NCBI GenBank assembly: GCA_903789615.1
Contig: CAIFEV010000009.1
Location: 3,296-67,295 of the forward strand
Direction of reading: 5' to 3'
Source: an uncultured Lachnospiraceae bacterium
Lineage (GTDB): Bacteria > Bacillota > Clostridia > Lachnospirales > Lachnospiraceae
Length of the DNA stretch: 64,000 nt
Shown here: positions 12,613-54,144 of the stretch, piece after piece
Numbering within the stretch: the first letter of the stretch is position 1
How the letters are laid out: each line of letters starts with the position of its first letter
Notes under the pieces: model-generated
The model's input: only the letters and a program-made list of their open reading frames with translations
Databases searched by the model: none
Told to the model about the DNA's origin: nothing
Program-made: the position numbers and the translations under genes

Positions 12613-12959
12613 CATCGGAAACCCCGGTTATGAGGGGAACCCGATGACATCCTGCTTTCTTTCCGGAAAGGGCAGCATCGGGGAAACGACTTGGTATGCA
12701 TTTCCGGGGACAAATTCATACCCCTGCGGGGTGAGGTGCAACGAAATAACAATCCTCTTGATTTCCGTTGCACTTTTAATCCGTTTTCAGGAAGACAGGC
12801 AACGAAAACAAATTTTCTTATGATTTCCGTTGCACTTTTCTCTTGATTTTTGAAAAAAGTGCAACGGAATCAGCATTTTCCATTGATTTCGTTGCACTCC
12901 TGTCAAAATCAGGGCAAAAAGTGCAACGGAATTCGAACATTTTCCGAATCCCGTTGCAC
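12613..12959. repeat. Hairpin-repeat array A: 2 CATCGG-type units plus 4 GTGCAACGGAAT/ATTCCGTTGCAC units, about 61-62 bp period
   Basis: Hairpins lie at 12613-12646, about 12675-12710, 12736-12773, 12798-12835, 12858-12898 and 12920-12959. No credible ORF is present. The array lies between convergent genes. Confidence 0.85.
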
Positions 12960-13071
12960 CCGTGACCCTTGGCAGGGGAAAGGCATAAACCACAGTTCCC
13001 GATGCCGCTCTAAAATTCCCTATGCGCTGCAAAATCCGATTCGCCACCGCGCATAAGGAGGGCTTCCATCC

Positions 13072-14697
13072 TCACACGTTCCCGTATACCAGCTTCCCGT
13101 TCATGAAGGTGGCCTCAACGGGGATGTCTTTCAGGTGTTCGGCGGGGACGTCAAACGGGTTTTCGCCGAGGATGACGAAGTCGGCCATGAAGCCGGGGGC
13201 GATGCGTCCCTTCACGTTTTCCTCAAAGCTTGCTTCGGCACTTTTGATCGTGTAGCTGTCCAGAATCTCCTGAACCGTGAAGGCTTCCTCCGGGCGGTAC
13301 GGGCCCAGCTGTCCGTCAAGCGTGCGGCGGGTCACGCCGCACTGCATGCAGGCGAGCGCGTCCGGGAGCTCGACCGGGCAGTCGGTGCCGTTGGAGACAG
13401 AGACGCCTGCATCTGAGAGCGTCTTCCAGGCGTAGCTGGTGGAGGCAAGCTCGTCTCCGACGCGTTCATGGATCATGTGAATGTCATAGTTCAGGAAGAT
13501 GCTCTGCATATAGACGTGCAGATTCATGTCTGTGATACGCCGGAGCTGTTCGGGACGCGTCACCTGACAGTGGACGATGCCGCAGCGGTGGTCAGCGCGC
13601 GGGTGCGCGGCAAATGCCTTCTCGTAGGCGTCAAGCACCATGTCAAGGCATGCGTCGCCGATTGCGTGAACCGCCACCTGCATGCCGTGCTCATTGGCAA
13701 AGCCGATCATCGCGTCAAATGTCTCCTGGTCAAAGAGCGGGTAGCCGCTCGTGGACGGATCGTCGGCATAGGGGCGCGAGAGGTAAGCCGTGCGGGCGCC
13801 AAGCGCTCCGTCGCCCAGCATCTTGAGCGGACCGATCTTGAAATTGTCCGTGCCCGCGCCGGTCGTGCAGCCTGATCCGTAAAACTCCTTCAGATCGGCA
13901 AGCGTCGTGAAGTTGCTCTGCTCGTAGATGCGGACCGTCAGCTCGCCTTCTTCTTCCAGCTCCCGGTAGGCCTCATTAACCGTCTGCCACGGGACAGCCC
14001 GGAACATGCAGTAGTCGTCCGTCTGGCTGCTGGTGACGCCGTAGCGGTTGAGCTGCCGGCAGGCAGCTTTGATCATCTCTTTTATTTCCGCCTTGTCCGG
14101 GACCGGGATCTTCGGGTACACATACTCGTCCATCGCGTTGTCCGAGAAGATACCGTTCAGGTGACCGTTCTCGTCGCGTCCGATGGCGCCGCCCTCCGGG
14201 TCCGGTGTGCTGTCTGTAACGCCCAGAAGCTCCAGCGCCTTTGAGTTCACGCAGAGAATGTGCCCGCAGGCGCGCGTCATGCACATCGGGACCTCCGTGC
14301 TCACCTGATCCAGGTCGTGACAGGTGGGCATCCGGTGCACGTCATCAAAGTAGTCCTGATTCCAGCCGCGCCCGGACAGCCAGCTTCCGTTTTTTCTCGG
14401 GTGCTCCTGCAGGAAGTCTCTCAGATAGGCGAGCATTCCCGAGAGACTCTCGGTGTGCTCGTCAAGCCGGGCAGCTCTCAGCGCGTTTCCGTACGCCAGC
14501 AGGTGCATGTGGCTGTCGTTAAACGCCGCCATGACAAATCTGCCCTTAAGGTCCACCTTTTCGCCGTCCGGCGCCGCCGCCAGCACTTCACTGTCACTTC
14601 CCGCGGCGAGGATTTTGCCGCCCTCCGTCACAAATCCCGTGACGAGGGGCAGCGTTCCTGTATATACATTCCCGTTATAATAAACTATCCTGCTCAT
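13072..14697 (-). CDS. Amidohydrolase-3 family protein (YtcJ-like)
   Basis: 541 aa. FNDSHMHLL is the metal motif and AVHAIGD is present. The start overlaps the symporter stop by 4 nt, so the two form an operon. Confidence 0.85.
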   Translation of the reverse strand: MSRIVYYNGNVYTGTLPLVTGFVTEGGKILAAGSDSEVLAAAPDGEKVDLKGRFVMAAFNDSHMHLLAYGNALRAARLDEHTESLSGMLAYLRDFLQEHPRKNGSWLSGRGWNQDYFDDVHRMPTCHDLDQVSTEVPMCMTRACGHILCVNSKALELLGVTDSTPDPEGGAIGRDENGHLNGIFSDNAMDEYVYPKIPVPDKAEIKEMIKAACRQLNRYGVTSSQTDDYCMFRAVPWQTVNEAYRELEEEGELTVRIYEQSNFTTLADLKEFYGSGCTTGAGTDNFKIGPLKMLGDGALGARTAYLSRPYADDPSTSGYPLFDQETFDAMIGFANEHGMQVAVHAIGDACLDMVLDAYEKAFAAHPRADHRCGIVHCQVTRPEQLRRITDMNLHVYMQSIFLNYDIHMIHERVGDELASTSYAWKTLSDAGVSVSNGTDCPVELPDALACMQCGVTRRTLDGQLGPYRPEEAFTVQEILDSYTIKSAEASFEENVKGRIAPGFMADFVILGENPFDVPAEHLKDIPVEATFMNGKLVYGNV

Positions 14698-16187
14698 CTG
14701 CTTTCCTTTACCACCTTATCCTCATAGAACAGCGGCATATCCGGATCAACCTTGCCGATACCGAACTTTCTGGCCTTGAAGTCCTTAAGAAGACGGAAAT
14801 ACGTTCCCGAGAGAACGACGATCGTGAACACGTTGACAAATGTCGGAACCGCCGACGTGATGTCGACGATGGTCCAGATGAAGCCCTGGTTGTTGGTCTT
14901 GACCAGATAAATGGTCCACAGCAGACCCGGAAGCGCGCGGCACGCGTAGAAGATCTTGTGCAGGATCCGGTTGAACTTCGTGTCTTTGCGGCCCATGTGG
15001 CTTAAGATCGCCAGATAATAGGTGAACCAGCCGCCGGATGTGGTGCAGGTGAAGATGATCATGATCACGGAGAGCAGGATGCTGCCGATGAGACCAAAAC
15101 TGGATTGGAATGCGGAGATGGCGAGCGTTCCGCCGTTGGTGCCGTTGGTCCACTGACCTGACAGGAGAATGGAGATACCGGTGATGGAGCAGACGATGAA
15201 GGTGTCGAAGAATACCTCAAAGGAGCCCCAGATTCCCTGCTCGACCGGGTGCGGCGTTCTGGCCGACGAGTGGATCATCGGAGAAGTACCCCAGCCGGCT
15301 TCGTTGGAGTAAACCGAACGGGTCACGCCGGTGCGGATCATGGAAGAAACCGTGGCGCCAGCAAAACCGCCCACGGCTGCGCGGCCGGTGAAGGCGTCGT
15401 GGAAGATGGATCCGAAGACGGTGGGAACATTTTCCACATTGGCGAAGATCATGGCAATTCCCATGAGAAGATAGAGAATGCTCATGAACGGAACGAGTTT
15501 GGAGAATATGGAGGCGATCTTTTCGACACCGCCGTCGGTGATGATGTAGTCGATGATTGTGATGACAACACCCACAAGGATAATGCCTTCGATACTCAGG
15601 CTTCCGATATGAACCGAGCCGAGGTTAAAGGCGCCGGCCACAACCTGTGATGCGGTGAGGGTGGAGGAGGTCACGAAGTAGGTGCTGAAGATGCCGATGC
15701 CGAAGATGACAGCCGGGATCTTCCAGGCCTTCCCCCAGTGCTTTTCCTGACCGAGGCCGTACTCCATGTAGTAGGTCGGACCGCCGGTAGTGGTGCCGTC
15801 AGCTCTCTTGTGACGGTAGTACAGGCCGAGCGTAACTTCGACCTGCTTGATGATCATGCCGAGCAGCGCGCTCATCCACATCCAGAAGATGGCACCCGCG
15901 CCGCCCGCAGCGACAGCGGTTGCGACACCGGCGATGTTGCCGAAGCCTACGGTCCCGCCGATGGCAGTTGAGATCGCCTGGAACGGCGTGATGGTTCCGG
16001 CTTTTGTCTCATCGGCGTTGGCCTTGCCGGTGAAGATCTTTCCGATGGTGTTCTTCATGATGAAGCCGAAATGGCGGATCTGGAAGAACCGGGAGCGCAC
16101 GGTGAAGTAGATGCCGGCGCCGATGATGAGGACGAGCAGCGGGGTACCCCATAAAACGCCGTCCAGCCAGCCAAGGAATTGAATCAT
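14694..16187 (-). CDS. Alanine/glycine:cation symporter (AGCS) family transporter
   Basis: The segment TPFQAISTAIGGTVGFGNIAGVATAVAAGGAGAIFWMW is typical of AGCS family members. RBS AAAGGAGGAAAA lies upstream. Confidence 0.88.
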   Translation of the reverse strand: MIQFLGWLDGVLWGTPLLVLIIGAGIYFTVRSRFFQIRHFGFIMKNTIGKIFTGKANADETKAGTITPFQAISTAIGGTVGFGNIAGVATAVAAGGAGAIFWMWMSALLGMIIKQVEVTLGLYYRHKRADGTTTGGPTYYMEYGLGQEKHWGKAWKIPAVIFGIGIFSTYFVTSSTLTASQVVAGAFNLGSVHIGSLSIEGIILVGVVITIIDYIITDGGVEKIASIFSKLVPFMSILYLLMGIAMIFANVENVPTVFGSIFHDAFTGRAAVGGFAGATVSSMIRTGVTRSVYSNEAGWGTSPMIHSSARTPHPVEQGIWGSFEVFFDTFIVCSITGISILLSGQWTNGTNGGTLAISAFQSSFGLIGSILLSVIMIIFTCTTSGGWFTYYLAILSHMGRKDTKFNRILHKIFYACRALPGLLWTIYLVKTNNQGFIWTIVDITSAVPTFVNVFTIVVLSGTYFRLLKDFKARKFGIGKVDPDMPLFYEDKVVKESR

Positions 16188-16292
16188 ACAGTTTTCCTCC
16201 TTTGAATAAATGTTCCTGTATGGTTTGCCGCGGCTGCCCTTCTGCCGCCGCGGTATCTGTGTGAGAGAAAGAAGGAAGGAGAAACTGTAAAT

Positions 16293-16327
16293 AAAAAAGG
16301 ACCTGCATGCCGCTAAAGCATACAGAT
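16293..16327 (-). terminator. Leader terminator (expression platform of the candidate riboswitch)
   Basis: On the minus strand, AUCUGUAUGC-UUUAGCG-GCAUGCAGGU forms a 10-bp stem including G-U pairs, followed by CCUUUUUUAUUU. It lies about 105 nt upstream of the symporter start. Confidence 0.6.
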
Positions 16328-16343
16328 CTTCTTCATCTATGCC

Positions 16344-16504
16344 AATAGCGCCTCTTCATATGGAAATGAAGGAGTGACAGGGATGTTGTCCTCTGCCCCC
16401 ACGAAAGCCTCCTGCCGGGGATTTCCGTTCGGCGGTGATTACCTTTCAGCAGCTTCAAAGCCTGCCGGCTCAACTGTTTACTCTTCTGCACCGCAGCCTC
16501 TATT
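16344..16504 (-). promoter_or_regulatory. Candidate lysine (L-box) riboswitch aptamer
   Basis: The minus-strand RNA carries the L-box hallmark strings in the expected order. These are AAUAGAGGCUGCGG, GAAGAGUAAACAG, CUGCUGAAAGG, CACCGCCGAAC, CCCUGUCAC and GAAGAGGCGCUAUU. P1 would be AAUAG/CUAUU and P2 closure GCGGUG/CACCGC. P3 looks unusually short, so the call is uncertain. Confidence 0.45.
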
Positions 16505-16643
16505 CTCTCAGACAGACTAATTATAAAAAGAAAGTGAAGTTTGTCAAGAAAAATATGGAAAATGTTTCCGCGCTTTGACAGGGGACGCGTGGCATTGTAA
16601 GATGGAAGTACTTACAAACAGGACAGAAAAGAGGTATGGACAC

Positions 16644-17750
16644 GTGAAAACAAGACCGATCGGGTATGCCGTCGAGGCCTGTGAGATGATGATGGACCGC
16701 TTCGCGCCGCAGGATCTGCCGCCGAAGGGGCATTTTCACTATCATCAGGGCGTTTTTCTCTCCGGCATGGAGAAGACATACAGGCTCTGTAACGATGAGC
16801 GGTATATGACGTACATCCGGGACTGGGTGGAGAGCTGCCTGGAGAGCGACCGGATGCCGGCAGATGCCAATCCCACGGAACTTGATGACATTCAGCCGGC
16901 CATTCTGCTGTTTCGGATCATGGATTGGAACGGCGACAGGTCGTACGAAAAGCTTTTGGAGTATTTTTCCGTGATTCTGCGCAACTTCCCGACAACATCC
17001 GAGGGCGGCCTCTGGCACAAAGGGCGCGACCCGCAGCAGATGTGGCTTGACGGCATGTACATGTCCGGTCCGTTCTTTGCAGAGTACGGAAAAAGGTACG
17101 GCCGGCCGGATTATCTGGAGGCAGTCGCCCGCGAGGCCATTCTCATGCGCAAACACTGCGAGGACCCGGAGACGGGGCTGTATTATCACGCCTGGGACGA
17201 GTCAAAGAAGGCTCCGTGGGCGGATCCGGAAACCGGGCGCTCGCCGGAGTTCTGGTGCCGTGCCATCGGCTGGGTTCCGGTTGCACTTCTGGACGATCTG
17301 GAGTTCATGGACGAAAACGCGCCTTATGTTCCGGAGCTGCGCAAGATGACGACGGATCTGCTTGATGCGCTTCTTACCTTTCAGACGGAGAGCGGTTTCT
17401 GGTACCAGATTGTCGACAAGGCAGACGATCCGGAAAACTGGCCGGAGACAAGCTCGACCTGCCTCTACGCGGCCGCGATGAGCAAGGCCATCCGGCTGGG
17501 ACTTGCGGAAGGGGAGCGGGAGAAGGCGTACAGACGGTCCATCCGCCGCGCTTTTGACGCCGTGACCGGAAATCTCACATACGATGCGGACGGCCACGTG
17601 CAGATCTCCGGCGTGTGCATCGGCACCGGCGTCATGGATTACGCTTCCTATCTGAAGCGCCCGACCTCGACCAACGACCTTCACGGCGTCGGCGCATATC
17701 TGCTCATGTGTGAGGAAGCGGAGCAGATCTGGGACGGAATGACAGAGTGA
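16644..17750 (+). CDS. Glycosyl hydrolase family 88/105 (unsaturated glucuronyl/rhamnogalacturonyl hydrolase, YteR-like)
   Basis: The blocks HYHQGVFLSGM, LDDIQPAILLF, WLDGMYM and YYHAWDES are YteR-like. The preferred start is GTG at 16644, 9 nt after AAAGAGG. The track start at 16575 has no RBS. Confidence 0.8.
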   Translation: MKTRPIGYAVEACEMMMDRFAPQDLPPKGHFHYHQGVFLSGMEKTYRLCNDERYMTYIRDWVESCLESDRMPADANPTELDDIQPAILLFRIMDWNGDRSYEKLLEYFSVILRNFPTTSEGGLWHKGRDPQQMWLDGMYMSGPFFAEYGKRYGRPDYLEAVAREAILMRKHCEDPETGLYYHAWDESKKAPWADPETGRSPEFWCRAIGWVPVALLDDLEFMDENAPYVPELRKMTTDLLDALLTFQTESGFWYQIVDKADDPENWPETSSTCLYAAAMSKAIRLGLAEGEREKAYRRSIRRAFDAVTGNLTYDADGHVQISGVCIGTGVMDYASYLKRPTSTNDLHGVGAYLLMCEEAEQIWDGMTE

Positions 17751-20444: not shown

Positions 20445-20517
20445 CGGGATGTAGCGCAGGTGGTAGCGCGCTTGACTGGGGGTCAAGAGGCCGCAGGTTC
20501 AAGTCCTGTCATTCCGA
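20445..20517 (+). tRNA. tRNA-Pro (anticodon GGG)
   Basis: The cloverleaf was drawn by hand. The acceptor stem is CGGGAUG/CAUUCCG with one G-U pair. The anticodon arm is CUUGA-CUGGGGG-UCAAG and the T-loop is GGUUCAAGUCC. No CCA is encoded. Confidence 0.85.
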
Positions 20518-23859: not shown

Positions 23860-23940
23860 TGCGGGCAACAGGACTTGAACCTGCACCCTCGCCGGACCAG
23901 AACCTAAATCTGGCGCGTCTGCCAATTCCGCCATGCCCGC
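23860..23940 (-). tRNA. tRNA-Leu (anticodon UAG)
   Basis: The reverse complement is GCGGGCAUGGCGGAAUUGGCAGACGCGCCAGAUUUAGGUUCUGG...GGUUCAAGUCCUGUUGCCCGCA. It has a long variable arm and anticodon loop UUUAGGU. Confidence 0.85.
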
Positions 23941-31296: not shown

Positions 31297-31630
31297 GCTG
31301 TGATGGAGACGACGGTCAGCAATTCGGATCTGGGCAGAGAGGGATGTCACCGGCTGAAAGCATCCTGAGATCCGGCAGATCTGTCCAACACTCCGGAGCC
31401 GGAGGGCCGATAGTCCGGTAGAAACTGCCGCGCGGATACACACCGCGGCGTAAGGAGCGGAAAGGTAGGCTTATCCCGCAGTGCCGCGCGTAAGACGGTT
31501 AAAGTGGGAGCTTTTGCGGCAGCTGCAGAGGCTTCAATCGCGGGTGGTACCGCGGGTCATGAACGATGCATGGTCCGTCCCGGAAAGTGTTCAGAAACAT
31601 GAGCATTTTCCGGGGCGGACTTTCTTTTTA
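31297..31630 (+). promoter_or_regulatory. T-box riboswitch leader, apparent specifier AAC (Asn)
   Basis: The GA/K-turn is GGCUG-UGAUG-GAG...CUCC-GGA-GCC. The AG bulge is GGGCAGAGAGG and the distal hairpin is GGAUG-UCACCGGCUGAAAG-CAUCC. The specifier-side strand is ...CUGUC-C-AAC-A-CUCC. The T-box core is AAUCGCGGGUGGUACCGCGGGUC at about 31536-31558, and a terminator follows. Confidence 0.85.
31573..31629 (+). terminator. T-box leader terminator
   Basis: GTCCGTCCCGGAAA (31573-31586) pairs with TTTCCGGGGCGGAC (31606-31620), followed by TTTCTTTTT. Confidence 0.8.
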
Positions 31631-31683
31631 GCGCATAAGCCAGCACCAGAGCATGGAAAGGACGCTGCCGGAAACCGGACTTG

Positions 31684-32019
31684 TCATCGGATTTTTGAAA
31701 ACGGACTGCTCCCGATGATTTTTTCGGACCTGCTGCCGGATGGCGATCATCGGAATTGTCATTATATTTGTTTCCGATGACTTTAAGAGGGCTTTTGAGC
31801 CATTCGAATCATCGGGAAAGCTAAAGTCAGGGCTATCCGATGATAACTTGCCTTTTCAGGCCCTGAATTGTCATCGGAATAGGATTGGTTTTCTAATTTT
31901 GATGAGGGCGGGGAATTTTAGGACGCCAATACTCATCGGAAAGGCAGACATGTGGTAATTCCGGTGATTTTGAAACGGCAATACTCATCGGAAAGGCAGG
32001 CTGACGGTGATTTTGATGA
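31684..32019. repeat. Hairpin-repeat array B: 6 TCATCGGAA/TTCCGATGA units, about 62 bp period
   Basis: Hairpins lie at 31684-31718, 31747-31780, 31809-31843, 31871-31905, 31933-31967 and 31985-32019. The array is non-coding and lies between the T-box terminator and the aspS start. Confidence 0.85.
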
Positions 32020-32130
32020 GCAGCCGCGGCCGGCAGCCGGCACCAGGCATGACAGCGAAGCGCCGCCTGGATATGTGCGGGCGTATGCGCTGAAAAGCAT
32101 CAGAAAATCAGGGATTTTCAGGAGGTATCT

Positions 32131-40866: not shown

Positions 40867-41512
40867 GCGCATCGGGAAGACTTCCTGTGATTGAGCTGGG
40901 CGCATCGGGAACCTGCCATGAACTTGCTTTCCGATGCGCTCCCGGCTCCACGGAAAGTGGGGCATCAGTTCCATGGCCTCAAGCTGTTCGAACAGTATAC
41001 CTCCCGGATCCATGGAAGATGGGGCATCAGCGGAAAGGCCCCAATAATTTGGATTCCGATGCGGGGCGGCCGGCGGCTGACTTTGAGAAGCATCGGAAAT
41101 GAGCAGCAGGTGACAGATTTGATGATTTTTTGCGTGCCTTGAAAATAGCCTGTCATCAAAATTGAACGGGATTGGGCAGTTTCCGATGATTATTAAAGGT
41201 CAAATCGGTGGTTCAGGCATCTATTTAATCTGAGAAATATAAATCCGATGACGAGAAAGCCAGAAATGGGCTAAAAAATCATCGGGAATTAAATTAGGAA
41301 CCTGCGTTCCGATGAATGGCAGTTTTCCGGGGGGCACAAAAATCATCGGAATTCACGCAAAAACTTGTTTTTCGATGCATGGGTCCCTTCGGAGGGCACA
41401 AAAATCATCGAGAGTACACCAATAACTTGCGTTCCGATGCGTGGAGGCTTTTGTTGACCCCGTTGAAGGAGCGTGAGCATCGGAAACTTGCCAAGAATTT
41501 GGATTCCGATGC
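40867..41512. repeat. Hairpin-repeat array C1: about 10 GCATCGGAA/TTCCGATGC-type units
   Basis: Clear hairpins lie at 40902-40937, 41024-41062, 41090-41125, 41153-41189, 41279-41315, 41343-41378, 41405-41440 and 41477-41512. Degenerate units lie between them. ORFs in the track here are repeat read-through. Confidence 0.85.
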
Positions 41513-41711
41513 GTTGCATTCTGATGCGCTGCAGGCGCTTCAATTGCCGTCCCGGGAGGAACCTCGGGGAAACTTGGAAGAACCCCAGGAGGAGCCTCGG
41601 GAGAAAAAGAGGTCCGTCAGAAATCCCAGCCAGCTTTGTTCCTGCAAGTTTATCGTATACCTTCCGGCTTGCCCCGCCCTGTGGTATGATATTTACAGCT
41701 GGTTCAGGCGC

Positions 41712-41742
41712 CAGATTTTTCAGATTTTTTCAGCAGATTTTT
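41712..41742. repeat. Tandem CAGATTTTT(T) x3 microrepeat
   Basis: Read directly: CAGATTTTT CAGATTTTTT CAG CAGATTTTT. Confidence 0.9.
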
Positions 41743-41912
41743 CAATAGTCAGTTCCTGTGCATTTCAGAGCATGTCATACATGCCTTATTTTCGGCGGCC
41801 TTTTCAGGCATTTTTCATTACCCGCGGCATTTCTGCCGGCAGGGAAACAAATAAGAATAATCGGAAGAAGTCACGTAAACATAATAATTCTGCAAATTTG
41901 TGGAGGGAATGG

Positions 41913-42731
41913 ATGAAAAGCAAACTGATGAAGGCGGCAGAAGTATATCCGGAAGCAGGAAAGCGGCTGTCAGAGTTGAAGCGGACAGAAAGAATGCTGG
42001 AAGGCCGTCTGCTAAACTGTCCGCAGGGGAAGATTCATCTTGTGACGCGAGGTGAGCAGGTGATGTACTATCTGCGGAGACGCTCTTCGGAACGGTCCGG
42101 CGTGTACATCTCCGTTCGGGATGAGCAGAAAATCAGGACATATCTGCAGAAGGCATACGACGAGAAGCTGCTTCGTCTTGTAAAACAGGAAATAGGGGAA
42201 CTGGAAACGTTTTTGCAGACAAATGCAGAATTCCCGGAGCGGATCAGGAATCTGTACACTAAATTTCCGGATAGGGCAAGAAAATTCATCGATGCGGCCG
42301 ATCTGCCGGATGACGAGCTGGCGAGAAGATGGCTTGAAGCGGCATTTGATGCAAAGGAAATACAGGATATTCCGGTGAAGCTTGTGACAGAGAACGGCGA
42401 ATATGTCCGCTCGAAGTCGGAGCTGAACATCGCCAATGCGCTGAACAGACGGAAAGTGCCATATAAATACGAGTGTCCGCTCAAACTGCGCAGCGGTACG
42501 ATTTATCCGGACTTCACGATTCTGAATGTCAGGAAAAGAAAAGTTCTGTACTGGGAGCACCGCGGGATGATGGATGATCGCGATTATGCAAGACATGCGG
42601 TCCACAGACTCAGGGAATATCAGCAGAATCAGATTTATCCGGGCGACGGTCTGATTATAACAGAAGAAACGTCAGCCAGTCCTCTGGGGACAGATGAGAT
42701 CTATGCGGTTATCCGTAAGTTCTGTCTGTGA
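41913..42731 (+). CDS. Hypothetical protein with C-terminal PD-(D/E)xK-like (restriction-endonuclease-fold) motif pattern
   Basis: ATG at 41913 lies 4-5 nt after GGAGGG. The N-terminal half is coiled-coil-like. The C-terminal half has VRSKSELNIANAL...YPDFTILNV...LYWEHRGMMDD, an E...D...E-x-x-G spacing like TnsA/Vsr-type nucleases. This is recalled as a common Clostridia hypothetical-protein family. Confidence 0.7.
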   Translation: MKSKLMKAAEVYPEAGKRLSELKRTERMLEGRLLNCPQGKIHLVTRGEQVMYYLRRRSSERSGVYISVRDEQKIRTYLQKAYDEKLLRLVKQEIGELETFLQTNAEFPERIRNLYTKFPDRARKFIDAADLPDDELARRWLEAAFDAKEIQDIPVKLVTENGEYVRSKSELNIANALNRRKVPYKYECPLKLRSGTIYPDFTILNVRKRKVLYWEHRGMMDDRDYARHAVHRLREYQQNQIYPGDGLIITEETSASPLGTDEIYAVIRKFCL

Positions 42732-42766: not shown

Positions 42767-43176
42767 GCATCGGAATTAGCAGCAGGCGGCGAATTGATGA
42801 TTTTTGCGTGCCCTGAATGCGGCACGTCATCAAAACTGAACCGGATAGAAAGATTCCGATGTTTTTTACGAGCATTGGAAACCTGCCTGTCATCGAAAAT
42901 GAATCAGATAGGAAATTTCCGATGATTTTTAAGGGGCAAATCGTTGATTCAGGCATCTATTTAACCTGAGAAAATTAATTCCGATGACGAGAAAGCTAGA
43001 AAGGGGCTAAAAAATCATCGGGAATCAAATACAAACCTGCGCTCCGATGAATGGCAGATTCCAAGCGGCCACAAAAGTCAGCGAAATATACGCAAAAACT
43101 TGTTTTTCGATGCATGGGTACCTTCGGTGACGGAGCGGAGGCATCGGAAGCTTGTTTTAAACTTGCTTTCCGATGC
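42767..43176. repeat. Hairpin-repeat array C2, homologous to part of C1
   Basis: Hairpins lie at 42767-42800, 42827-42861, 42890-42925, 43015-43050, about 43076-43114 and 43141-43176. The first three are followed by T-runs. Long blocks are collinear with 41064-41391. Confidence 0.85.
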
Positions 43177-43192
43177 GTGGCGCCTTCCCATT

Positions 43193-43254
43193 CAGCCTTC
43201 CCCCTCAGCCTTCCCCCTCAGCCTTCCCCCTCATCTTCCCCCTCAGCCTTCCCT
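43193..43254. repeat. Tandem 13-mer CAGCCTTCCCCCT (3 perfect copies plus 2 degenerate)
   Basis: Read directly from the sequence, between array C2 and the truncated binding-protein gene. Confidence 0.95.
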
Positions 43255-43309
43255 TTTTCCTTCTATTTCCTTTTCCGCCAGTTCACAGGACTGGCGCACG
43301 GCGTCCTGA

Positions 43310-43842
43310 AAGTCGGAGGCGATGGCGGAGAGCAGGTCGCCAGCATCATTCAGCAGAATCTGCAGGAGGCCGGCGTGACGATTCAGATTCAGGTCCAGGA
43401 GGCGGCGACGATGTTCGCGGGTCTGTTCTCCGGAAGCGTCGGGATCTCACTCGTCAACGCCAGCTACAGCTCCAACCCGATGTGGCTGAGGAGTTTCCTG
43501 ACCAATGACGCGACGACCTATATCAACGTTCAGGACGACACCTGGGACGAAATGTATGACAGATTTGTCGCGGCCGATACGGAGGAAGGCGAGATTGCGG
43601 CTGCCAAAGAGTTCCAGCAGCTGTGGCTTGAGAAGGAACCGTGCATCTTCTATGCGGCCAGTTACGAGGACTACCCGCACTCGGCAAGACTCGGGAACGC
43701 TGTCGGACTTCTTAATGACGCAAGCGGTAACCTTACTGTCTGGAACTGGTGCAGGTATATTTTGCTCAGCAGGATAAACAGGCATACCGGACACAACTGC
43801 GGGATTGTCAAACGGGATTTCAGGGATTATACTGAGTCCTGA
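43310..43842 (+). pseudogene. 5'-truncated remnant of an ABC transporter family-5 (Opp/Dpp-like) substrate-binding protein
   Basis: Only the C-terminal ~150 aa look SBP_5-like (...VASIIQQNLQEAGVTIQIQVQEAATMF...NVQDDTWDEMYDRF...AAAKEFQQLWLEKEPCIFY...). There is no signal peptide or N-lobe. The upstream part of the ORF reads through repeats. Confidence 0.6.
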
Positions 43843-45463: not shown

Positions 45464-46486
45464 GTGGATTATTCAGGAATATTTACCAAACAGGAGGACA
45501 AGATACGTGAAAGAAATAAAGTGTATGGGGCAGCCGCTCTGACAGCGGCTCTTGCCGCGGGGGGTCTGGCCGGATGCGGCAGTTCATCGGGGACAACAAC
45601 GGGGGCGCCTGGGAGCAGTTCTTCCGCAGCCACTACATCGGCAGCATCCGGAAGTTCTTCCGGCGGCAGTTCGTCCGGCAGTGCGGACATGACATTCGCC
45701 TGGTGGGGCAATCAGGTGCGCAACGAAGAGACCCAGAAGGCCATCGAAGCGTATCAGAAGGCCAACCCCGGGATTACCATCGACGGGCAGTTCTCCCAGT
45801 TTTGCGACTACTGGCAGAAACTCGCGACGGCCTCGGCCGGAAACGAGCTCCCGGACGTCATCCAGATAGACTACTCCTATTTGAACCAGTACGTCTCCAG
45901 CGGCCTGCTCTACGATCTGTCCGGTTTTGTCTCGGACGGCACCATGGACACTACGAACTGGAACCAGTCCATGATTAACGCCGGCACGGTCGACGGCAAG
46001 CCATCCAACATGTATGTCGGATACCTGAATGTGGCGCAGGAAGGCCAGGAGCTGCTCATGACGACGCAGCCCAGCAAGGACCCGAAGAAGTCCAATTACC
46101 TGAAGCCGAGTATGTTCTACTCTGTGAGCCGCGACGCAAAGGACCCGAAGGCAGCGGCAGCGTTCATCGCATGGCTCACCAACAGCACGGAAGCCAATGA
46201 CTGCCTGAAGGGCGAGAGAGGCATCCCGCTCAACTCCACGATCGCGGATTCCGTAAAGGCACAGCTTCCGGAGAGTGAACAGGCCATCTATACATACGTC
46301 GAGGATGTCGTTGTGGACAACAGCTCCGACATCAATCCGCCGGATCCGTCCGGCAACTCCGAGGCCGTGAATGTCTTCAATCAGGTTCTCGAGCAGCTAT
46401 GCTACGGTCAGATGACACCGGAAGACGCCGCGTCGCAGATGATCTCTCAGGGAACGGCAGTTCTGAAGGCGAAGGCTTCATCCTAA
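45464..46486 (+). CDS. ABC transporter family-1 (sugar-type) substrate-binding lipoprotein, orphan and possibly 5'-frameshifted
   Basis: It has a lipobox ...AALAAGGLAGC, an S/G-rich linker and an SBP_1-like body. The only good RBS (CAGGAGGA) serves GTG at 45507, which is one base out of frame. No permease or ATPase genes are adjacent. Confidence 0.6.
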   Translation: MDYSGIFTKQEDKIRERNKVYGAAALTAALAAGGLAGCGSSSGTTTGAPGSSSSAATTSAASGSSSGGSSSGSADMTFAWWGNQVRNEETQKAIEAYQKANPGITIDGQFSQFCDYWQKLATASAGNELPDVIQIDYSYLNQYVSSGLLYDLSGFVSDGTMDTTNWNQSMINAGTVDGKPSNMYVGYLNVAQEGQELLMTTQPSKDPKKSNYLKPSMFYSVSRDAKDPKAAAAFIAWLTNSTEANDCLKGERGIPLNSTIADSVKAQLPESEQAIYTYVEDVVVDNSSDINPPDPSGNSEAVNVFNQVLEQLCYGQMTPEDAASQMISQGTAVLKAKASS

Positions 46487-46494
46487 GAAAGAAT

Positions 46495-46534
46495 GCAGCG
46501 GAACTCCCAAATTGGTGTGCTTCCGCTGCTTTTT
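46495..46534 (+). terminator. Intrinsic terminator
   Basis: GCAGCGGAA pairs with TTCCGCTGC, followed by TTTTT. Confidence 0.7.
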
Positions 46535-46678
46535 CGGATACCCTTCTTCCACGCTTTTTACCGCGCCCGGAAAGCGGTTTTACATAAAATTTGAATTCCG
46601 GCAGAGGTTATACAACCGGATTTTCTGTATAATATAGGGAATGACGGCAGTACAGAAGTCATCAGCAGGAGACGTGGT

Positions 46679-48067: not shown

Positions 48068-49154
48068 GCCAGAAATCCACGCACTCGTCCAGCCAGCCGC
48101 CGACCTCAAGTCCGATTCCAAGGCCAAACGAGTGGCCGCCCGAGCGCCCGATGCGCGTGATGTGCGGAACCTTCAGTCCGGTGAGCTTCTTGTCCAGTGC
48201 CTTCGTATTGGCAACCGGAACGACGGGGTCATCTTCATTGACCACGAGGTATGTCTTCGGATAGGTGCCGTCGATAAAGTCGAGGAGCTCGTAGGGAGCC
48301 AGAGAGGCCTCACTTACGAGCGGGCCGCCCACGCGGCGCAGGAATGCGGCGGCGCCGGCTTTGGCGGCGGACCCTTCCGGCGCGGCTTCATACGCGGCAA
48401 AGGACGCCTTGTTGCTGACGACCGTGTAGCCGAGCGCGATGAGCTCAGGTCTCTTTACATCCGCGCCGGGCCAGCGCTGCGCCCCGCCGGCCCCGTTCGG
48501 GAAGTCATCCGGTGCGCTGTTCCAGCCGAAATTCAGACTCCCGGCTTCGGACGCGATCACGGCGCCCGCCGAGAAGCCCGCCAGCATGTAACGGCCCGGA
48601 AGGACATCAAACTGCGCGGCGTTCTCGTCAATATAGCGGATCGCGCGGTACATGTCCTCCAGCGGCTTTGGCATAAGCGGCTCCTGCTTCACCCGGTAAT
48701 ACAGGACAAATGCCGGAATCCCCTTCTCATTTAACGCTGCGGCGATGGCCTCGCCCTCGATGAATCCCCACTGGCGGTTGAATCCGCCGCCCGGGATCAC
48801 CAGCGCATACGGCTTTGGTCCGGGTCCGCCGGCGCTTTTGCAGGTATTGCTGTCTTCCTTTGCCGGAAAGTACAGCAGCTTCACGCGGGCCAGATCCCAG
48901 TTTGCGAGCCGCTCTTCTTCACTGTAAATATCCCTGACCAGAGTCGCGCCGCCTTTCCCGTCGGATGCGGCCAGTTCTTCCATGCGGTGAAGGCCCGGTA
49001 CAAAGCCGACCGTGTCGAACCCGAACTCCGAAAGCTTTGCATAACAGCGGTCCGGCGTCATGTCGGTGAAAATATAGTCCGCCAGCGCGCCGTACGCGCC
49101 GGAGCGGATCAGATCTGCGATTGTCATATCTGGTTTGATTTCGGTATACTGCAT
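48048..49154 (-). CDS. Alpha/beta-hydrolase (esterase/lipase-type)
   Basis: VIPGGGF and the nucleophile elbow GFSAG are present. The start is moved to ATG at 49154 (MQYTEIK...), which follows GGGAG. The 3' end overlaps the mgtE 3' end by 20 nt in convergent orientation. Confidence 0.8.
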   Translation of the reverse strand: MQYTEIKPDMTIADLIRSGAYGALADYIFTDMTPDRCYAKLSEFGFDTVGFVPGLHRMEELAASDGKGGATLVRDIYSEEERLANWDLARVKLLYFPAKEDSNTCKSAGGPGPKPYALVIPGGGFNRQWGFIEGEAIAAALNEKGIPAFVLYYRVKQEPLMPKPLEDMYRAIRYIDENAAQFDVLPGRYMLAGFSAGAVIASEAGSLNFGWNSAPDDFPNGAGGAQRWPGADVKRPELIALGYTVVSNKASFAAYEAAPEGSAAKAGAAAFLRRVGGPLVSEASLAPYELLDFIDGTYPKTYLVVNEDDPVVPVANTKALDKKLTGLKVPHITRIGRSGGHSFGLGIGLEVGGWLDECVDFWLTPEEA

Positions 49155-49276
49155 TGTGATTCTCCCTGAAAGAACGGTTTCTTCCGCTCTCATAATACGA
49201 TGGAAACGCCTGTATTACCACATAATTTCTGCATTATCGGTTTTTATCATGGAATAAACGCAGCAGATGCAGTAAG

Positions 49277-50416
49277 ATGAAAAAAGTGAAAACGATAAAA
49301 AAACATACACAGGCCGTGAAGCGGTCTGAAAAGATTTACAGAAGAGGAGCGGCCGCAGTGTTGGCGGCAGTCTCCTGTGCCGCGCTGCTTTCCGGATGCG
49401 CAAGCGGAACCAGGACAGGCGGCAAAACGGCGGCTTCCTCACCGGAAGCCGGCGCGAAGCCCGGAAGTTCTGATACACAGACGGCACAGGCGGGACAGAA
49501 CGCAGCCGCCGCGCCGAAGGTGGTCATGCCGGCATTTACCGCGGATTTTGAACCGCCCGCTCACGGCGACCCGTCGCAGATCGCACAGACAATCGTGTAC
49601 GGCAGCGGCGGAGCGTATGATGACACGGACTTCAGCGTTCCGGACGGATATGCCTCGGAGAGGGATGACGTGACATACGGCGGGTATATCACCAGTCTGA
49701 CGTACTACTCGCAGACCGCTGGCATGGAGAAGACGTTCAATATTGTCCTTCCGGCCGGATACGACGAGAGTCAGAGCTACCCGGTTCTCTATCTGCTGCA
49801 CGGGTACGCCGGCGACCCGAACGAGTGGAACGCGGCGCGGGTGGTCTGCGGGAATCTGCAGGCGGCCGGCCAGATGCCGCCCTGCATCATCGTCCAGCCG
49901 GACCTGTGGACGAATCAGGAATCAAAGGACGGTGCCGGCTTTGTTGACTGGATCAACGCTTTTGCCGCCTTTCCGCAGGACCTGACAGAGGATCTCATGC
50001 CGTATATCGAAGCTCATTACAGCGCAGCCACAGGTAAGGAAAATACCGCGGTTCTCGGCCTTTCTATGGGAGGTGAGCAGGCGCTTGTCACAGCCTTTGA
50101 GAATCCCGGCATGTTCGGCTATGTCGGGGCTCTTGCGCCGATGATTGGCGCCCTGGATACGGGCGGTGCCGCTTCGTTTATGACATCCGCTCTGAAGGAG
50201 CTGAATATGGAAGACACGGACGACATCCCGTACTACATCATGCAGAATTACGGCACCGAGGAGCCGTGGGACAAGGAAGCGACGGACGAATACCGCAAGA
50301 GTATGACGGAAAACGGCATTCCGAACGCATTTTACATCATTGAAGGCACCGGCCATGACGGCAACACGTGGGTGCCAGGTCTTTATAATTTTGCCGGAAG
50401 AATCTTCCGGAACTGA
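49277..50416 (+). CDS. Secreted/lipoprotein esterase (putative esterase, esterase-D-like fold)
   Basis: The signal peptide has LLSGC. YLLHG and GLSMGG (GxSxG) are present. Confidence 0.8.
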   Translation: MKKVKTIKKHTQAVKRSEKIYRRGAAAVLAAVSCAALLSGCASGTRTGGKTAASSPEAGAKPGSSDTQTAQAGQNAAAAPKVVMPAFTADFEPPAHGDPSQIAQTIVYGSGGAYDDTDFSVPDGYASERDDVTYGGYITSLTYYSQTAGMEKTFNIVLPAGYDESQSYPVLYLLHGYAGDPNEWNAARVVCGNLQAAGQMPPCIIVQPDLWTNQESKDGAGFVDWINAFAAFPQDLTEDLMPYIEAHYSAATGKENTAVLGLSMGGEQALVTAFENPGMFGYVGALAPMIGALDTGGAASFMTSALKELNMEDTDDIPYYIMQNYGTEEPWDKEATDEYRKSMTENGIPNAFYIIEGTGHDGNTWVPGLYNFAGRIFRN

Positions 50417-50430
50417 AAAGGACATGACAA

Positions 50431-52149
50431 ATGGTTCAGAAAAGCACAAAAGAACGGAAATGGTGGGCACAGTTTGACTGCCTGGAGCTCGGCAGCGGAT
50501 GGGACGAGAAGGACATCCGCAAGCCGCAGATTCTGATCGAGGATGTGTATGGTGACTCGCATCCCGGCAGTACGCATCTGAACAAGCTCTCTGAGCAGGC
50601 AAAATACGGCGTCTTCGAGTCGGGCGGCTATCCGGCGCAGTATCACATCACCGACGTCTGTGACGGCTGCGCGCAGGGGCACGACGGCATGAACGTGGTT
50701 CTGGCTTCGCGCGAGGCCATCGCCAACATGGTCGAGGTTCACGCCTCGGCGGTCCCGTGGGACGGCATGATCCTGTCCTCAAGCTGTGACAAATCCATTC
50801 CGGCGCACCTCAAGGCGATCGCGCGCATGAATATCCCGGCGATCTTTATGCCGGGCGGCAGCATGCGGCCGGGGCCGGACATGACGACAAGCCTTGTGGC
50901 CGGCGATATTTCCCTGCGGGAAAAGCGCAAAGACGCGATCACACCGGACGAAATCCGGGATTACAAGCTGACGGGCTGTCCGTCCTGCGGCGCGTGTCAG
51001 TTCCTCGGCACGGCCAGCACGATGCAGTGTATCGCGGAGGCACTCGGTCTGGCACTGCCGGGAAGCGCCCTGGCGCCGGCGACAATGCAGGACATTCTCT
51101 GGTACGCCAGAAAGGCGGGCCGGCAGATCATGAAGCTGGCCGAGGCGGGCATCACGCCGGACAAGATCCTCACGCCGGCTGCATTCCGCAATGCCATTAT
51201 CGTGCACAGCGCGATCGGCGGCTCGACGAACGCCATGATTCATCTGCCCAGTATTGCCCGTGAGATCGGGTACGATCTGCCGATGGAGCTGTTCGACGAG
51301 ATCAATCACAAGGTTCCGCACATCGGCAACATGTATCCGAGCGGTCAGTATCCGACAGAGTGTTTCTGGTTCGCCGGCGGCATTCCGATGGTGGAAGAGT
51401 ACCTGAAGGATATGCTGGACCTGGACGTGATGACGGTCACGGGCAGGACGCTCGGCGAGAACCTCGAGGACATAAAGGCCGATCATTTCTACGAGAGAAA
51501 CCTCGGATTTCTGCACAACTACGGCCTGACGCGCGATCAGGTGATCGTGCCGCCGGACAAGGTGACGGAGATCGGCAGTGTTGCGGTGCTGAAAGGCAAC
51601 ATTGCGCCGGAAGGTGCGGTGATCAAGTACTCCGCCTGCCGGAAAGAGCAGCGCAGGGCCACAGGCGCTGCGCGCGTCTTTAACCGCGAGGAAGATGCCT
51701 ACGAGGCGGTTGTGAATCACAAAATCCATCCGGGCGACATCATCATCATCCGGTTCGAAGGCCCCAGAGGCAGCGGCATGCCGGAAATGCTCATGACGAC
51801 GGAGGCGATTGTGTGCGACGAGGAGCTCAACGGCACGGTGGCTCTGATCACCGACGGCCGCTTCTCCGGCGCAACGCGCGGCGCCGCCATCGGCCACGTC
51901 TCCCCGGAGGCGGCAGGCGGCGGGCCGATCGCATTTGTCGAAGAGGGCGACCTGATCACCTATGATGTGGAGGGCCGGTCTGTCAACCTGACGGGAATTC
52001 ACGGAAAGCCGGTAAGCCCGGCGGAAGCTGACGCTGAGCTCGCAAGACGCGCAAAGGCAGGCATTCCGCCGCGCCCGAAGCGCCGCGGCTTCTACAAACT
52101 GTACACGGATCATGCGCTGTCAGCCATGAAGGGCGGCGGGCTCGCGTAA
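50431..52149 (+). CDS. IlvD/Edd-family dehydratase (sugar-acid dehydratase-like)
   Basis: The blocks [27 protein letters not shown] and [12 protein letters not shown] are present. Confidence 0.88.
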
Positions 52150-52159
52150 GGAGGGAAAC

Positions 52160-53056
52160 ATGAACGCAAACTATATCACGCCGTCTGTCACGCTTTTCAG
52201 CGATGACATGAGTCTTGACCTGGAGAGTCAGGGGCGGCTTTTCGATCATCTGATCTCGGGCGGTGTCGACGGCATTCTGGTAAATGGCAGCATCGGCGAA
52301 TTTTTCGCGATGCCGCTGGAGCAGAGAAAGCAGCTGGCAGAATTTGCCATCAAAAAGGTCGATCACCGCGTGCGGCTTTTTGTCGGGACGATGGACATGG
52401 TGTATGACAATATTGTTCCATTTTCCAATGAGGTTCTGGCGGCGGGCGCCGATGCGGTGATGATCATTTCGCCGTATTATTTCTGGTTCAAAGACGATCA
52501 GCTTTTTGACTACTACGACGGCCTGATCGGCAAAATCAACGGCCCGGTCTATCTGTACAACTTCCCGGACAGAACCGGCTACAGCCTGAGCCCGGCGCTG
52601 GTGCGGCGCCTCGCTGACAAATATCCGAATCTGCGCGGCATCAAGGACACGATCAGCGGTGTGGACCACACGCGCGATCTGGTGAAGACGGTGAAGTCCG
52701 CGCATCCGTATTTTGAGGTGTATTCCGGGTTTGACGACAACGCCGCGCACAATGTCCTGAACGGGGGCGACGGGATCATCGGCGGCCTCAGCAACATCAT
52801 CCCGGAGCTCTGCAGCAAGTGGATCGCCGCGATGCGCGCTGACGATGCGAAGGGAATCGCGGACGGTCAGAAGATGATCAACCGGATGTTTGACATTTAT
52901 TCGGTCGCGCCGGTCTTCATTCCGACGATCAAGGAGGCCGTACGCCTGCGCGGCGTCGTGAGCAGCAGCATCTGCACGAAACCGATGCCTGTCATTTCGC
53001 AGCAGCAGGACGAACAGATCCGCACGATTCTGCGCCGGGAAGGAATCGATGTCTGA
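52160..53056 (+). CDS. Dihydrodipicolinate synthase family aldolase (DapA/KDG-aldolase-like)
   Basis: 298 aa. GVDGILVNGSIGEF and YLYNFPDRTG are present, and GIKDT carries the Schiff-base Lys context. Confidence 0.85.
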   Translation: MNANYITPSVTLFSDDMSLDLESQGRLFDHLISGGVDGILVNGSIGEFFAMPLEQRKQLAEFAIKKVDHRVRLFVGTMDMVYDNIVPFSNEVLAAGADAVMIISPYYFWFKDDQLFDYYDGLIGKINGPVYLYNFPDRTGYSLSPALVRRLADKYPNLRGIKDTISGVDHTRDLVKTVKSAHPYFEVYSGFDDNAAHNVLNGGDGIIGGLSNIIPELCSKWIAAMRADDAKGIADGQKMINRMFDIYSVAPVFIPTIKEAVRLRGVVSSSICTKPMPVISQQQDEQIRTILRREGIDV

Positions 53057-53330
53057 ACCGTACTATGTGTATCTTCTGCGCTGCCACGACGGGACGCTGT
53101 ACTGCGGCAGTACGAATAATCTTGAGCACCGCGTGAAGGCGCACAACAGCGGGAAAGGCGCGAAGTACACGAAGGCGCGCCGTCCGGTGTGCCTTGTCTA
53201 TTCGGAAGAGCTGTCCTCGAAATCCGAGGCGCTGCGGCGGGAGGCGGCGGTCAAAAAGCTGACCAGACAGCAGAAACTGGCACTGATTAAAAGCGCCGGG
53301 AACCCTCGCGGAAAGGAGGAGACGGCATGA
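53049..53330 (+). CDS. GIY-YIG nuclease-family protein (UPF0213-like)
   Basis: YYVYLLRC...GTLYCGSTNNLEHRVKAHNSG is the GIY-YIG core. It overlaps its neighbours by 8 and 4 nt. Confidence 0.85.
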   Translation: MSEPYYVYLLRCHDGTLYCGSTNNLEHRVKAHNSGKGAKYTKARRPVCLVYSEELSSKSEALRREAAVKKLTRQQKLALIKSAGNPRGKEETA

Positions 53331-54046
53331 GTCTGTATGCAATCGGCGATCTGCATCTGCATTACGGGACGGACAGATTTCCGGACCTGCAGAAGACGGA
53401 TCCGGACTGGGTCGGCCACGAGGAAAAGGTGAAGAGAAACTGCGCGCGGCTCATCCGGCCGGAGGACACGCTTGTCCTTGTCGGAGACCACACGTGGGGA
53501 AGATCGGTGACGGAGCGCCGTCCGGATTTTGAATTTATTGAGGCGCTGCCCGGCAGGAAGATTCTGACGCGCGGCAACCACGACATGTTCTGGGAGGCAA
53601 AGCACACGGACGCACTGCGGCAGCGCTATAAAGAGCTGTATGACGGAGACCTGGAGTTCCTTCAGGGCTCTTTTGCGGTCTGGAAAGACTTCGCGCTGGT
53701 CGCCACCAAAGGTTACACCTATGAGGGGCTTGATACGCCGGAGCATGCGGAAAAGCTTGTGCGCCGCGAACTTGCGCGGCTTAAGGCCGGGCTTGACGAG
53801 GCGCAGGCGGCCGGGTACAAAAAAATCATCATCTTCCTGCACTATCCGCCTACCAACATCCTGGAGCGCGAGAGCGGCTTCACCCGGATGGCGGAGGCGT
53901 ACGGCGTCAGTCAGGTTGTCTACGCACACTGCCACGGCCGAGCCCGGTTTCACGACAGCATCCGCGGGATGTTTCACGGCGTGCGCTATACTCTCGTGTC
54001 CGGCGACAGCCTGAACTGGTGCCCGGAGAAAATTGTGGATGGGTGA
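53327..54046 (+). CDS. Metallophosphoesterase
   Basis: The motifs GDLHL, GDH, GNHD and HYPP are present. Confidence 0.82.
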   Translation: MSLYAIGDLHLHYGTDRFPDLQKTDPDWVGHEEKVKRNCARLIRPEDTLVLVGDHTWGRSVTERRPDFEFIEALPGRKILTRGNHDMFWEAKHTDALRQRYKELYDGDLEFLQGSFAVWKDFALVATKGYTYEGLDTPEHAEKLVRRELARLKAGLDEAQAAGYKKIIIFLHYPPTNILERESGFTRMAEAYGVSQVVYAHCHGRARFHDSIRGMFHGVRYTLVSGDSLNWCPEKIVDG

Positions 54047-54108
54047 GTTTGGTCGGGGCCGGTGTTTACTGGAAGTTACGGGTCTGCCGGGAGCGAGCTG
54101 GCCTGCCG

Positions 54109-54144
54109 TCATCGGAAAGCAAGCCAGGCGGCGATCCCGGTGCA
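54109..54144. repeat. Isolated degenerate hairpin unit of the CATCGGAA family
   Basis: TCATCGGAAA...ATCCCGGTGCA. A further half-site TCACCGGAAA lies at 54170-54179. Confidence 0.5.

Follow-up and report, generated by a model that had tools for sequence, protein, structure and literature searches.

Phased arrays of hairpin-type repeats and a linked PD-(D/E)xK nuclease-like protein family in Lachnospiraceae

Described repeat systems and the arrays of the window

The repetitive extragenic palindromic (REP) sequences of Proteobacteria, the bacterial interspersed mosaic elements (BIME) and the REPIN-RAYT systems are built of short extragenic palindromes, which are dispersed, intergenic and often clustered (PMC3116915, PMC3733652). 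In our study, a stretch of 64,000 nucleotides from an uncultured Lachnospiraceae bacterium (GCA_903789615.1, contig CAIFEV010000009.1; hereafter the window) was found to contain comparable repeats, which occur as tandem arrays of units with two complementary arms, together with a gene for a protein of 272 amino acids (aa), P0001, located between two of the arrays. An array was present beside the nuclease-like gene in most of the loci examined. We consider that the arrays may be the cognate DNA elements of the linked protein, in a partnership of the REP/REPIN-RAYT kind formed by a PD-(D/E)xK-family protein and phased tandem units, and we give this reading a probability of about 0.48. No description of the arrays or of the protein family was found in literature searches. 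The window organism was also present in landfill, sheep-gut, pig-gut and bioreactor metagenomes, and its ArgG shared 99% identity with the ArgG of a metagenome-assembled Lachnospiraceae genome.

The arrays share several properties with REP/RAYT systems (PMC3116915, PMC3733652). In both, the enzyme gene is chromosomal, apparently vertically inherited and itself flanked by repeats, the repeat sequence is particular to the clade of the enzyme, and several pairs of repeat and enzyme may be present in one genome. REP sequences are imperfect palindromes of 20-40 bp that are dispersed, extragenic and multi-copy, and the same was found for the units described here, which measure about 33-36 bp from arm to arm. 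The GTAG/CGTC tetranucleotide tag of REP sequences was absent from the arrays. Unlike the inverted REP doublets, the units stand head to tail with a fixed period of 62-64 bp and long loops, and the dispersed unit is the whole array of about 0.65 kb, in a host belonging to the Lachnospiraceae (Bacillota). RAYT is a Y1 HUH transposase of the IS200/IS605 type, whereas the linked protein is predicted to have a PD-(D/E)xK nuclease fold; a RAYT may be present elsewhere in the genome.

The known type III toxin-antitoxin systems (ToxIN, CptIN and TenpIN), of which CptIN is present in Lachnospiraceae, contain direct repeats of 34-45 nt in 2-5.5 copies, have neither palindromic arms nor orphan arrays, and encode a toxin of the ToxN/AbiQ fold. 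A tandem array directly upstream of a nuclease gene is common to these systems and to the loci studied here (46 of 77, see below), whereas the units of 62 nt, the 4-11 copies, the many dispersed arrays and the predicted PD-(D/E)xK fold are not. Plasmid centromeres (sopC/SopB of F and parC/ParR of R1) consist of phased inverted-repeat units beside the gene of a binding protein, which binds cooperatively and regulates its own gene; each replicon possesses one array, the proteins are of the ParB or ribbon-helix-helix type, and the role is in segregation. The arrays resemble them in having phased tandem units, each with an inverted repeat, beside a gene, and differ from them in that the arrays are many and chromosomal and the protein has a predicted nuclease fold; among the neighbours, no partner of the ParA/ParM kind was seen.

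Four arrays were found in the window, in which the arms CATCGG(A/G)A and T(T/C)CCGATG alternate; the arrays are given without strand. The distance between arm starts was 25-28 nt from the left to the right arm and 36-37 nt from the right arm to the next left arm, which gives the period of 62-63 bp observed at all four (direct-repeat spacings of 62 and 63). The succession of arm, loop and linker is as the preliminary description had it. Array 1 lies between convergent amidohydrolase genes and is composed of two CATCGG-type units, the second of them degenerate (array 1a, 12613-12715), followed by four compensated units with the arms GTGCAACGGAA and TTCCGTTGCAC and a 62-bp period (array 1b, 12736-12959). 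Array 2 (31685-32019) contains six units, with the folD terminator on one side and asnS on the other. Array 3 (40870-41512) contains about ten units upstream of the nuclease-like gene, and array 4 (42768-43176) contains seven units immediately 3' of it. Arrays 3 and 4 are collinear direct-repeat paralogs around the gene, with 83% identity over about 400 bp (41072-41450 in array 3). The spacer or leader between array 3 and the gene start (41514-41912, +) differs between strains. All sites of the window were intergenic: they were found in the gap of the convergent amidohydrolase genes, in that of folD and asnS, and on both sides of a single hypothetical gene. Five intergenic sites had been listed earlier, and four of them were recovered as arrays; the fifth (54109-54144) was found to be the stump of an array of about ten units, now collapsed to its first and last units (site 5, 54109-54195), and a solo unit (46494-46535, +) is to be added.

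The frequency of the repeats was well above chance. The two-arm pattern CATCGGRA-N12-26-TYCCGATG had five exact matches in the window against 0.04 expected, and a unit search allowing two mismatches found 13 units against 0.3 expected. The right arm TCCGATG had 41 matches against 15.2 expected, of which 26 were inside the listed sites; the remaining 15, outside them, are at chance level. The GCAACGG...CCGTTGC variant of array 1b, reported earlier as compensated, had four exact matches between 12736 and 12959 against 0.07 expected, and its depth in related metagenomes was 8-10x, which shows that it is also multi-copy in the genome. The repeats are true repeats and not independent terminators, as had been proposed, and no named family accounts for them: Rfam gave no match to the arrays of the window and of five further Lachnospiraceae loci at gathering or at permissive E-value thresholds.

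The preliminary description had also seen T-runs after many units, and had taken the units for terminators in either orientation and, possibly, for multi-terminator insulators. This part did not hold: T-runs were found only after a minority of the units, and none of the units, with loops of 15-20 nt, passed a terminator scan. The arrays resemble Rho-independent terminators in their location at gene 3' ends, and some single units (46494-46535, and the guaA-proximal units of the related loci L164 and L137) have a short loop or a T-run. In contrast to intrinsic terminators, which have a GC-rich stem, a loop of 3-8 nt and a T-run, the units of the arrays have stems of about 8-12 bp and loops of 17-25 nt, mostly without a T-run. 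Canonical terminators were rejected, as loops of 15-25 nt and a mostly absent T-run do not fit them and no array unit was present in the terminator scan, in which the counts equalled those of shuffled sequence. For folD, a strong terminator distinct from the repeats was found shortly before array 2 (31573-31620). Folding of long stretches was uninformative because any arm pairs with any other. The solo unit has a third compensated arm pair, GCAGCGGAA and TTCCGCTGC, a 17-nt loop that resembles the loop consensus of the family, and a following TTTTT, and it begins 8 nt past the stop codon of an SBP_bac_1 gene; it is plausibly a terminator.

The regular spacing, the partly palindromic repeats and the similar period (about 60-65 bp) also recall CRISPR arrays. 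Here the intervening sequences are not unique, and the conserved part consists of two arms of 8-12 nt instead of a repeat of 23-47 nt. A CRISPR was rejected because the sequences between the arms recur, with 83% identity between arrays 3 and 4 and 75-90% among the copies of Lacrimispora. No Cas-type Pfam domain was found in the open reading frames (ORFs) of the window that were scanned next to the arrays.

A nuclease-like gene beside the arrays

The decisive element, which was absent from the preliminary description, is the gene at 41913-42731 (+) between arrays 3 and 4. It encodes P0001, with an N-terminal helix/beta/long-helix domain and a C-terminal PD-(D/E)xK nuclease-like domain. When the window was compared by BLAST with the loci derived from the repeat pattern, the only coding region matched was 42387-42700, which is part of this gene, and homologs with 44-47% identity were found to adjoin arrays in six Lachnospiraceae loci that had been found through the repeat pattern only. 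A second sample was collected by protein only and contained 80 metagenome loci, of which 77 had enough upstream sequence for the upstream test. An array was called periodic where the self-match at a lag of 62-63 (or 72-73) was at least 50% within 700 bp of the gene. An upstream periodic array was present in 46 of the 77 loci (42 at a lag of 62-63 and four at a lag of 72-73), compared with four of 83 downstream of the gene and one of 294 control segments. Degenerate arrays were seen by eye in all eight of the inspected loci that were below the threshold or without exact arms.

The association could in principle be incidental, the arrays being ordinary tandem repeats or satellite DNA born at terminators, with the gene in a repeat-prone spot. 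Arrays do often start at terminators, and tandem repeats expand and contract unaided. The association spans proteins of about 45% identity and different neighbourhoods, against the low frequency in the controls; gene-adjacent arrays agree with distant ones in arms and geometry, which differ between the paralogs of one genome; and the arm sequence is conserved across genera where the rest of the unit has diverged. We therefore regard an incidental linkage as very improbable.

No Pfam, NCBIfam or PDB sequence match was found for P0001. Among the PADLOC models, PDC-S68, a candidate defence protein, was matched at its C-terminus by residues 158-269 (E = 8e-28), and further matches were to PDC-S69 and a HEAT/CxxC PD-DExK model. 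The same C-terminal domain was found in plasmids, at the end of large AAA/RecD-like helicases. The AlphaFold2 model of P0001 had a mean predicted local distance difference test (pLDDT) value of 92.3 and contained a helix at 11-34, a three-stranded sheet, a long helix at 71-104, short helices and an alpha-beta-beta-beta-alpha-beta core. The fold matches were all PD-(D/E)xK nucleases, namely Bax1, R2 endonuclease, DrdV, MunI and BamHI in the PDB, and, among viral models, endonucleases, Holliday-junction resolvases, homing endonucleases, TnsA-N and Vsr. A Vsr/TnsA/Hjc-type PD-(D/E)xK nuclease fold is predicted for the C-terminal domain, and the N-terminal part resembles prefoldin-like coiled coils. 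An enzyme of the RAYT/HUH type was rejected for the linked gene, which has no Pfam match (hence none to Y1_Tnp) and is modelled as a PD-(D/E)xK nuclease.

Among 51 sequences of the family, the residues R166, K168, E170, D200, E215 and H216 were invariant, and R217 was nearly so (at least 90%). E170, D200 and E215 are located at the elements expected for a PD-(D/E)xK core, which has its acidic residues on helix 1, strand 2 (PD) and strand 3 ((D/E)xK), and the position of the lysine is occupied by Arg217. The mean pairwise identity was 62% in the nuclease domain, followed by 39% in the N-terminal part and 35% in the middle part. The family contained 2,861 clusters (50% identity) at E<=1e-30 and 7,899 at E<=1e-3. 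All the named members were annotated as hypothetical protein, and nearly all were from Lachnospiraceae.

The gene is chromosomal. It has no conserved operon partner; guaA was the upstream neighbour in 24 loci, and the remaining neighbours that recurred at related loci were unrelated genes, among them those for an ABC ATPase and a regulator of the AraC type. Full-length members of the family were not found in plasmid and phage collections.

The position of the array directly 5' of the nuclease gene is the layout of ToxIN and CptIN, and it raises the possibility that the arrays act as RNA, either as a repeat RNA that is processed by the nuclease and neutralises it, as in type III toxin-antitoxin systems, or as 3'-untranslated hairpins that terminate or stabilise transcripts. 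Some PD-(D/E)xK enzymes are RNases, and cap-snatching endonucleases were among the fold matches. The gene-adjacent arrays were found to have a strand polarity, the loops being C-rich and G-poor on the coding strand. The first hairpin past guaA (L164 and L137), which is made of the same arm motif, is a true terminator, and the solo unit at 46494 is terminator-like. Metatranscriptome contigs of Lacrimispora span array and gene; the origin of these contigs is uncertain and they may contain DNA. Against an RNA role, the dispersed arrays have no fixed orientation with respect to the genes around them, and mismatches of the G-U type were about as frequent as those of the A-C type (404 against 328), which gives no clear sign of selection at the level of RNA. 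The short stems with long loops, and the failure of the array units in the terminator scan, do not favour it either. Orphan arrays remote from the gene are foreign to type III systems, and the predicted fold of the protein is unlike that of ToxN/AbiQ. We consider an RNA role quite unlikely.

Arm sequence, geometry and turnover of the arrays

A search of relatives for the pattern had been recommended, and it showed that the same architecture is widespread in Lachnospiraceae. A scan with a two-unit pattern, in one genome per species, found at least 117 loci; the genome-wide counts are lower bounds. About 70 of these loci were from Lachnospiraceae, including Lacrimispora saccharolytica, Agathobacter, Lachnospira, Acetatifactor and many metagenome-assembled genomes (MAGs). 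Among the matches listed, the arrays reached 11 units, and the 326 units showed a peak of the left-right spacing at 26-27 nt and of the right-left spacing at 36-37 nt, with conservation confined to about 10-12 nt per arm. The arm consensus was (T)(A/G)CATCGG(A/G)A or GCATC(G/A)(G/A)AAA. Arrays with at least six arms were found, among the matches listed, in 13 convergent, 15 tandem and four divergent gene contexts. Contigs of many strains end exactly at arrays, which shows that the arrays break assemblies.

Further repeats or gaps were seen at some other loci. In a MAG of the PVC group (L045, 3450-3560), compact palindromes TTTCCGATGATCGGAAA occurred about every 30 nt; they share the half-site of the window arms in a head-to-head arrangement that makes a hairpin loop impossible, and the likeness may be kinship or coincidence. 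At another locus (L189, 3700-3960), a second simple tandem repeat of the AAGAAGAAAAG/AAGCAAG type was located between the array and the gene, and at a third (L123, 9740-9826) a run of N, that is an assembly gap, interrupted the array.

The arms of the gene-adjacent arrays were mostly of the type (A/G)GCATC(G/A)(G/A)AAA; the others were GGGCAACAAAA, (A)CAGCGGAAA, CGGCGGAAA, GGCAATG and GCACCAAAA. Between loci, the arms thus varied among GCATCGG, GCATCAA, GGGCAAC, CAGCGG, CGGCGGA, GGCAATG and others. In the gene-adjacent arrays and in the count of the variable arm position, the second arm was complementary to the first without exception. In the window, the variable position was T, A or G, which gives three arm variants. 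Since complementarity is kept in at least three variants of the window and in many elsewhere, either pairing as a hairpin or cruciform or a strict two-fold symmetry should matter. Amplification of a single palindromic founder had been put forward as a caveat; it is fair within one array, and it does not cover three compensated variants in the window and many more across genomes. The arm sequence itself is conserved across genera, and this points to recognition by a protein beyond structure alone.

Where one locus contained a second array, its arms were identical to those of the first. The sister strain GCA_022483765.1 encodes a paralog, P0010, which is 54% identical to the window protein. The array adjacent to P0010 has the arms TGATGAAT and ATTCATCA with a 32+32 spacing, and an array on a different contig of this strain has exactly the same arms, TGATGAAT and ATTCATCA, and the same 32+32 spacing. 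An additional array of ten units in the strain is of the CATCGG/CACCGG type with a 25+38 spacing. Two paralogs, two repeat dialects and two geometries were thus found in one strain, as a cognate relationship between protein and DNA predicts.

Contigs of related strains (X4, X5, X6, X9 and others) were aligned to the window, and the arrays were found to turn over between them. In the strains X4 and X9, whose neighbouring sequence is otherwise 99% identical, the block of array 2 (31653-32035) is replaced by 35 nt. Array 3 of X5 and X6 was without one 62-nt unit (40939-41000), and additional units of 62 and 63 nt were present in array 1 in three related-strain runs. At site 5, the window is 558 bp (9 x 62) shorter than the intact array of about ten units of GCA_022483765.1. 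From 41381 on, X9 and X4 contain 2.9 kb of other sequence. The leader before the nuclease-like gene, together with the gene's 5' half (41381-42167), is replaced or interrupted there by about 2.9 kb, the loose ends of which encode a diverged N-terminus, GKIHIV..., and this difference suggests an allelic replacement or an insertion in the gene. An apparent excision of 2.3 kb with the gene in run X5 was rejected as a mapping artefact of an 18-nt repeat; the true differences were a 33-nt duplication and one 62-nt unit.

In Lacrimispora saccharolytica An861, at least ten arrays were present at no fewer than nine loci as collinear copies of an element of about 0.65 kb, 75-90% identical and in both orientations. 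As the copies are collinear over this length, the dispersing entity is the whole array and not the single hairpin. Collinear copies of about 0.4-0.7 kb were found at many loci overall.

A part of these observations would also be expected if the protein were a resident sequence-specific DNA-binding protein with an architectural or regulatory role and the arrays its chromosomal binding platforms. It would then regulate its own gene through the upstream array, the arrays elsewhere would be insulators, roadblocks or nucleoid organisers, spread by ordinary recombination only, and the nuclease fold would be for binding or occasional cutting. The array lies immediately 5' of the gene and in places abuts the ribosome-binding site; at L164, its last arm adjoins a TATAAAT box, some 30 nt upstream of the start codon. 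The strict phasing of 62-64 bp persists despite diverged loops and linkers, the position of the gene after guaA is stable, and the gene contexts given above show a bias of the arrays to gene 3' ends. Against this explanation, the catalytic-type residues are invariant across the family, and copies of whole blocks at many loci, in both orientations and with presence or absence between near-identical strains, are unexpected for purely regulatory sites. One array is also located at a gene truncation and synteny break. We find this explanation somewhat unlikely.

The array at the synteny break is array 4, which abuts the remnant of a truncated SBP_bac_5 gene. The ORF past this array (43114-43842) is the C-terminal remnant of a gene for an oligopeptide-binding SBP_bac_5 protein and is 81% identical to the intact gene of the sister strain; in that strain, a complete opp operon lies in front of the amidohydrolase. 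At the junction (43182-43253), a 13-bp tandem repeat GCCTTCCCCCTCA was found in 5.6 copies. The SBP_bac_1 gene before the solo unit (45464-46486) is short in the window, where it forms an ORF of 340 aa (265 aa as called in the same strain); in other strains (L205 and L207-L209) it encodes 401-439 aa and is followed by a gene of the IS256 family (Transposase_mut). In sister strains of the GCA_022483765.1 type, this gene is entirely absent and an array of the TGATGAAT type is present in its place.

A second dispersed element was also seen, a long hairpin with the arms AGCGCATAAGCC...GGCTTATGCGC(G) (31624-31646 and 32075-32097 in the window). Array 2 sits within one copy of it, and another copy was found 3' of the sister-strain amidohydrolase (L218, 11300-11490). 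Beyond site 5, the window contains a group II intron (54300-56200), with Rfam matches to D1-D4 at 54434-54741. Its start, GTGCG, is at 54350, which is 9 nt past a strong hairpin (54300-54341), and bacterial class C introns habitually insert just past hairpins of the terminator type. The intron ORF (54687-56102) encodes a reverse transcriptase/maturase of 471 aa, in which Pfam detects no endonuclease domain, and the sister strains are without this insert of about 2 kb. A lysine riboswitch (16338-16510, -, 68 bits) and two tRNA genes (20445-20517, +; 23860-23940, -) were found elsewhere in the window.

A possible repeat-enzyme partnership and its meaning

Of the roles suggested earlier, REP-like repeats and a protein-recognised array fit the evidence, and the multi-terminator insulator fails. 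If the arrays are the cognate elements of the linked protein, a dimer formed through the coiled-coil N-terminal part would read both arms of each unit. These could be recognised as half-sites in duplex DNA, separated by about 27 bp, or as the stem of an extruded hairpin or cruciform. The fixed period, of about six helical turns, would allow cooperative binding along one face of the DNA, and the array before the gene itself would be its operator. Nicking or cutting at the arms, followed by recombinational repair, could copy, expand and contract the arrays and occasionally transpose a whole array, with a target preference for sites just downstream of genes and terminators.

Several points weigh against this partnership. 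The window has three arm variants yet a single gene copy. Catalysis by the protein is not assured, because an arginine (E215-H216-R217) replaces the canonical lysine of (D/E)xK. Neither terminal signatures nor target-site duplications were found at the array ends of the window strains and of the Lacrimispora copies, and slippage or unequal recombination alone can produce gain and loss of units and the collapse of arrays. That the synteny with guaA is conserved speaks for a resident host gene and not for an active mobile element, and the array next to the gene may be no more than an operator for autoregulation.

The chance is substantial that the system forms a class of repeat-enzyme partnership of its own. 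A bolder form of this proposal, which we advance only tentatively, is a new class of repeat-enzyme symbiosis in Bacillota, in which a stand-alone PD-(D/E)xK protein, with Vsr, TnsA and Holliday-junction resolvases as relatives, would read hairpin or cruciform units on a ruler of 62-64 bp and copy or reshape whole arrays without HUH transposases. Arm sequence and spacing would then be peculiar to each paralog. If this form is true, genome 'gardening' of the REP-like kind would have been reached by a second route, through convergence, and nucleases with programmable specificity for structure or sequence might be obtained from the system.

Lachnospiraceae are among the most abundant bacteria of the gut, and a family of hypothetical proteins that is thousands strong, together with conspicuous arrays, has apparently not been described in them. 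The arrays are relevant to metagenome assembly, strain typing and genome stability, because they break assemblies, mark strain polymorphisms and sit at rearrangement points. If it is true that the protein recognises the arrays and acts on them, partnerships of the REP/RAYT kind would not be bound to HUH transposases, and the way in which arm, spacing and protein vary together would provide a natural series on how a nuclease fold reads DNA hairpins or phased half-sites.

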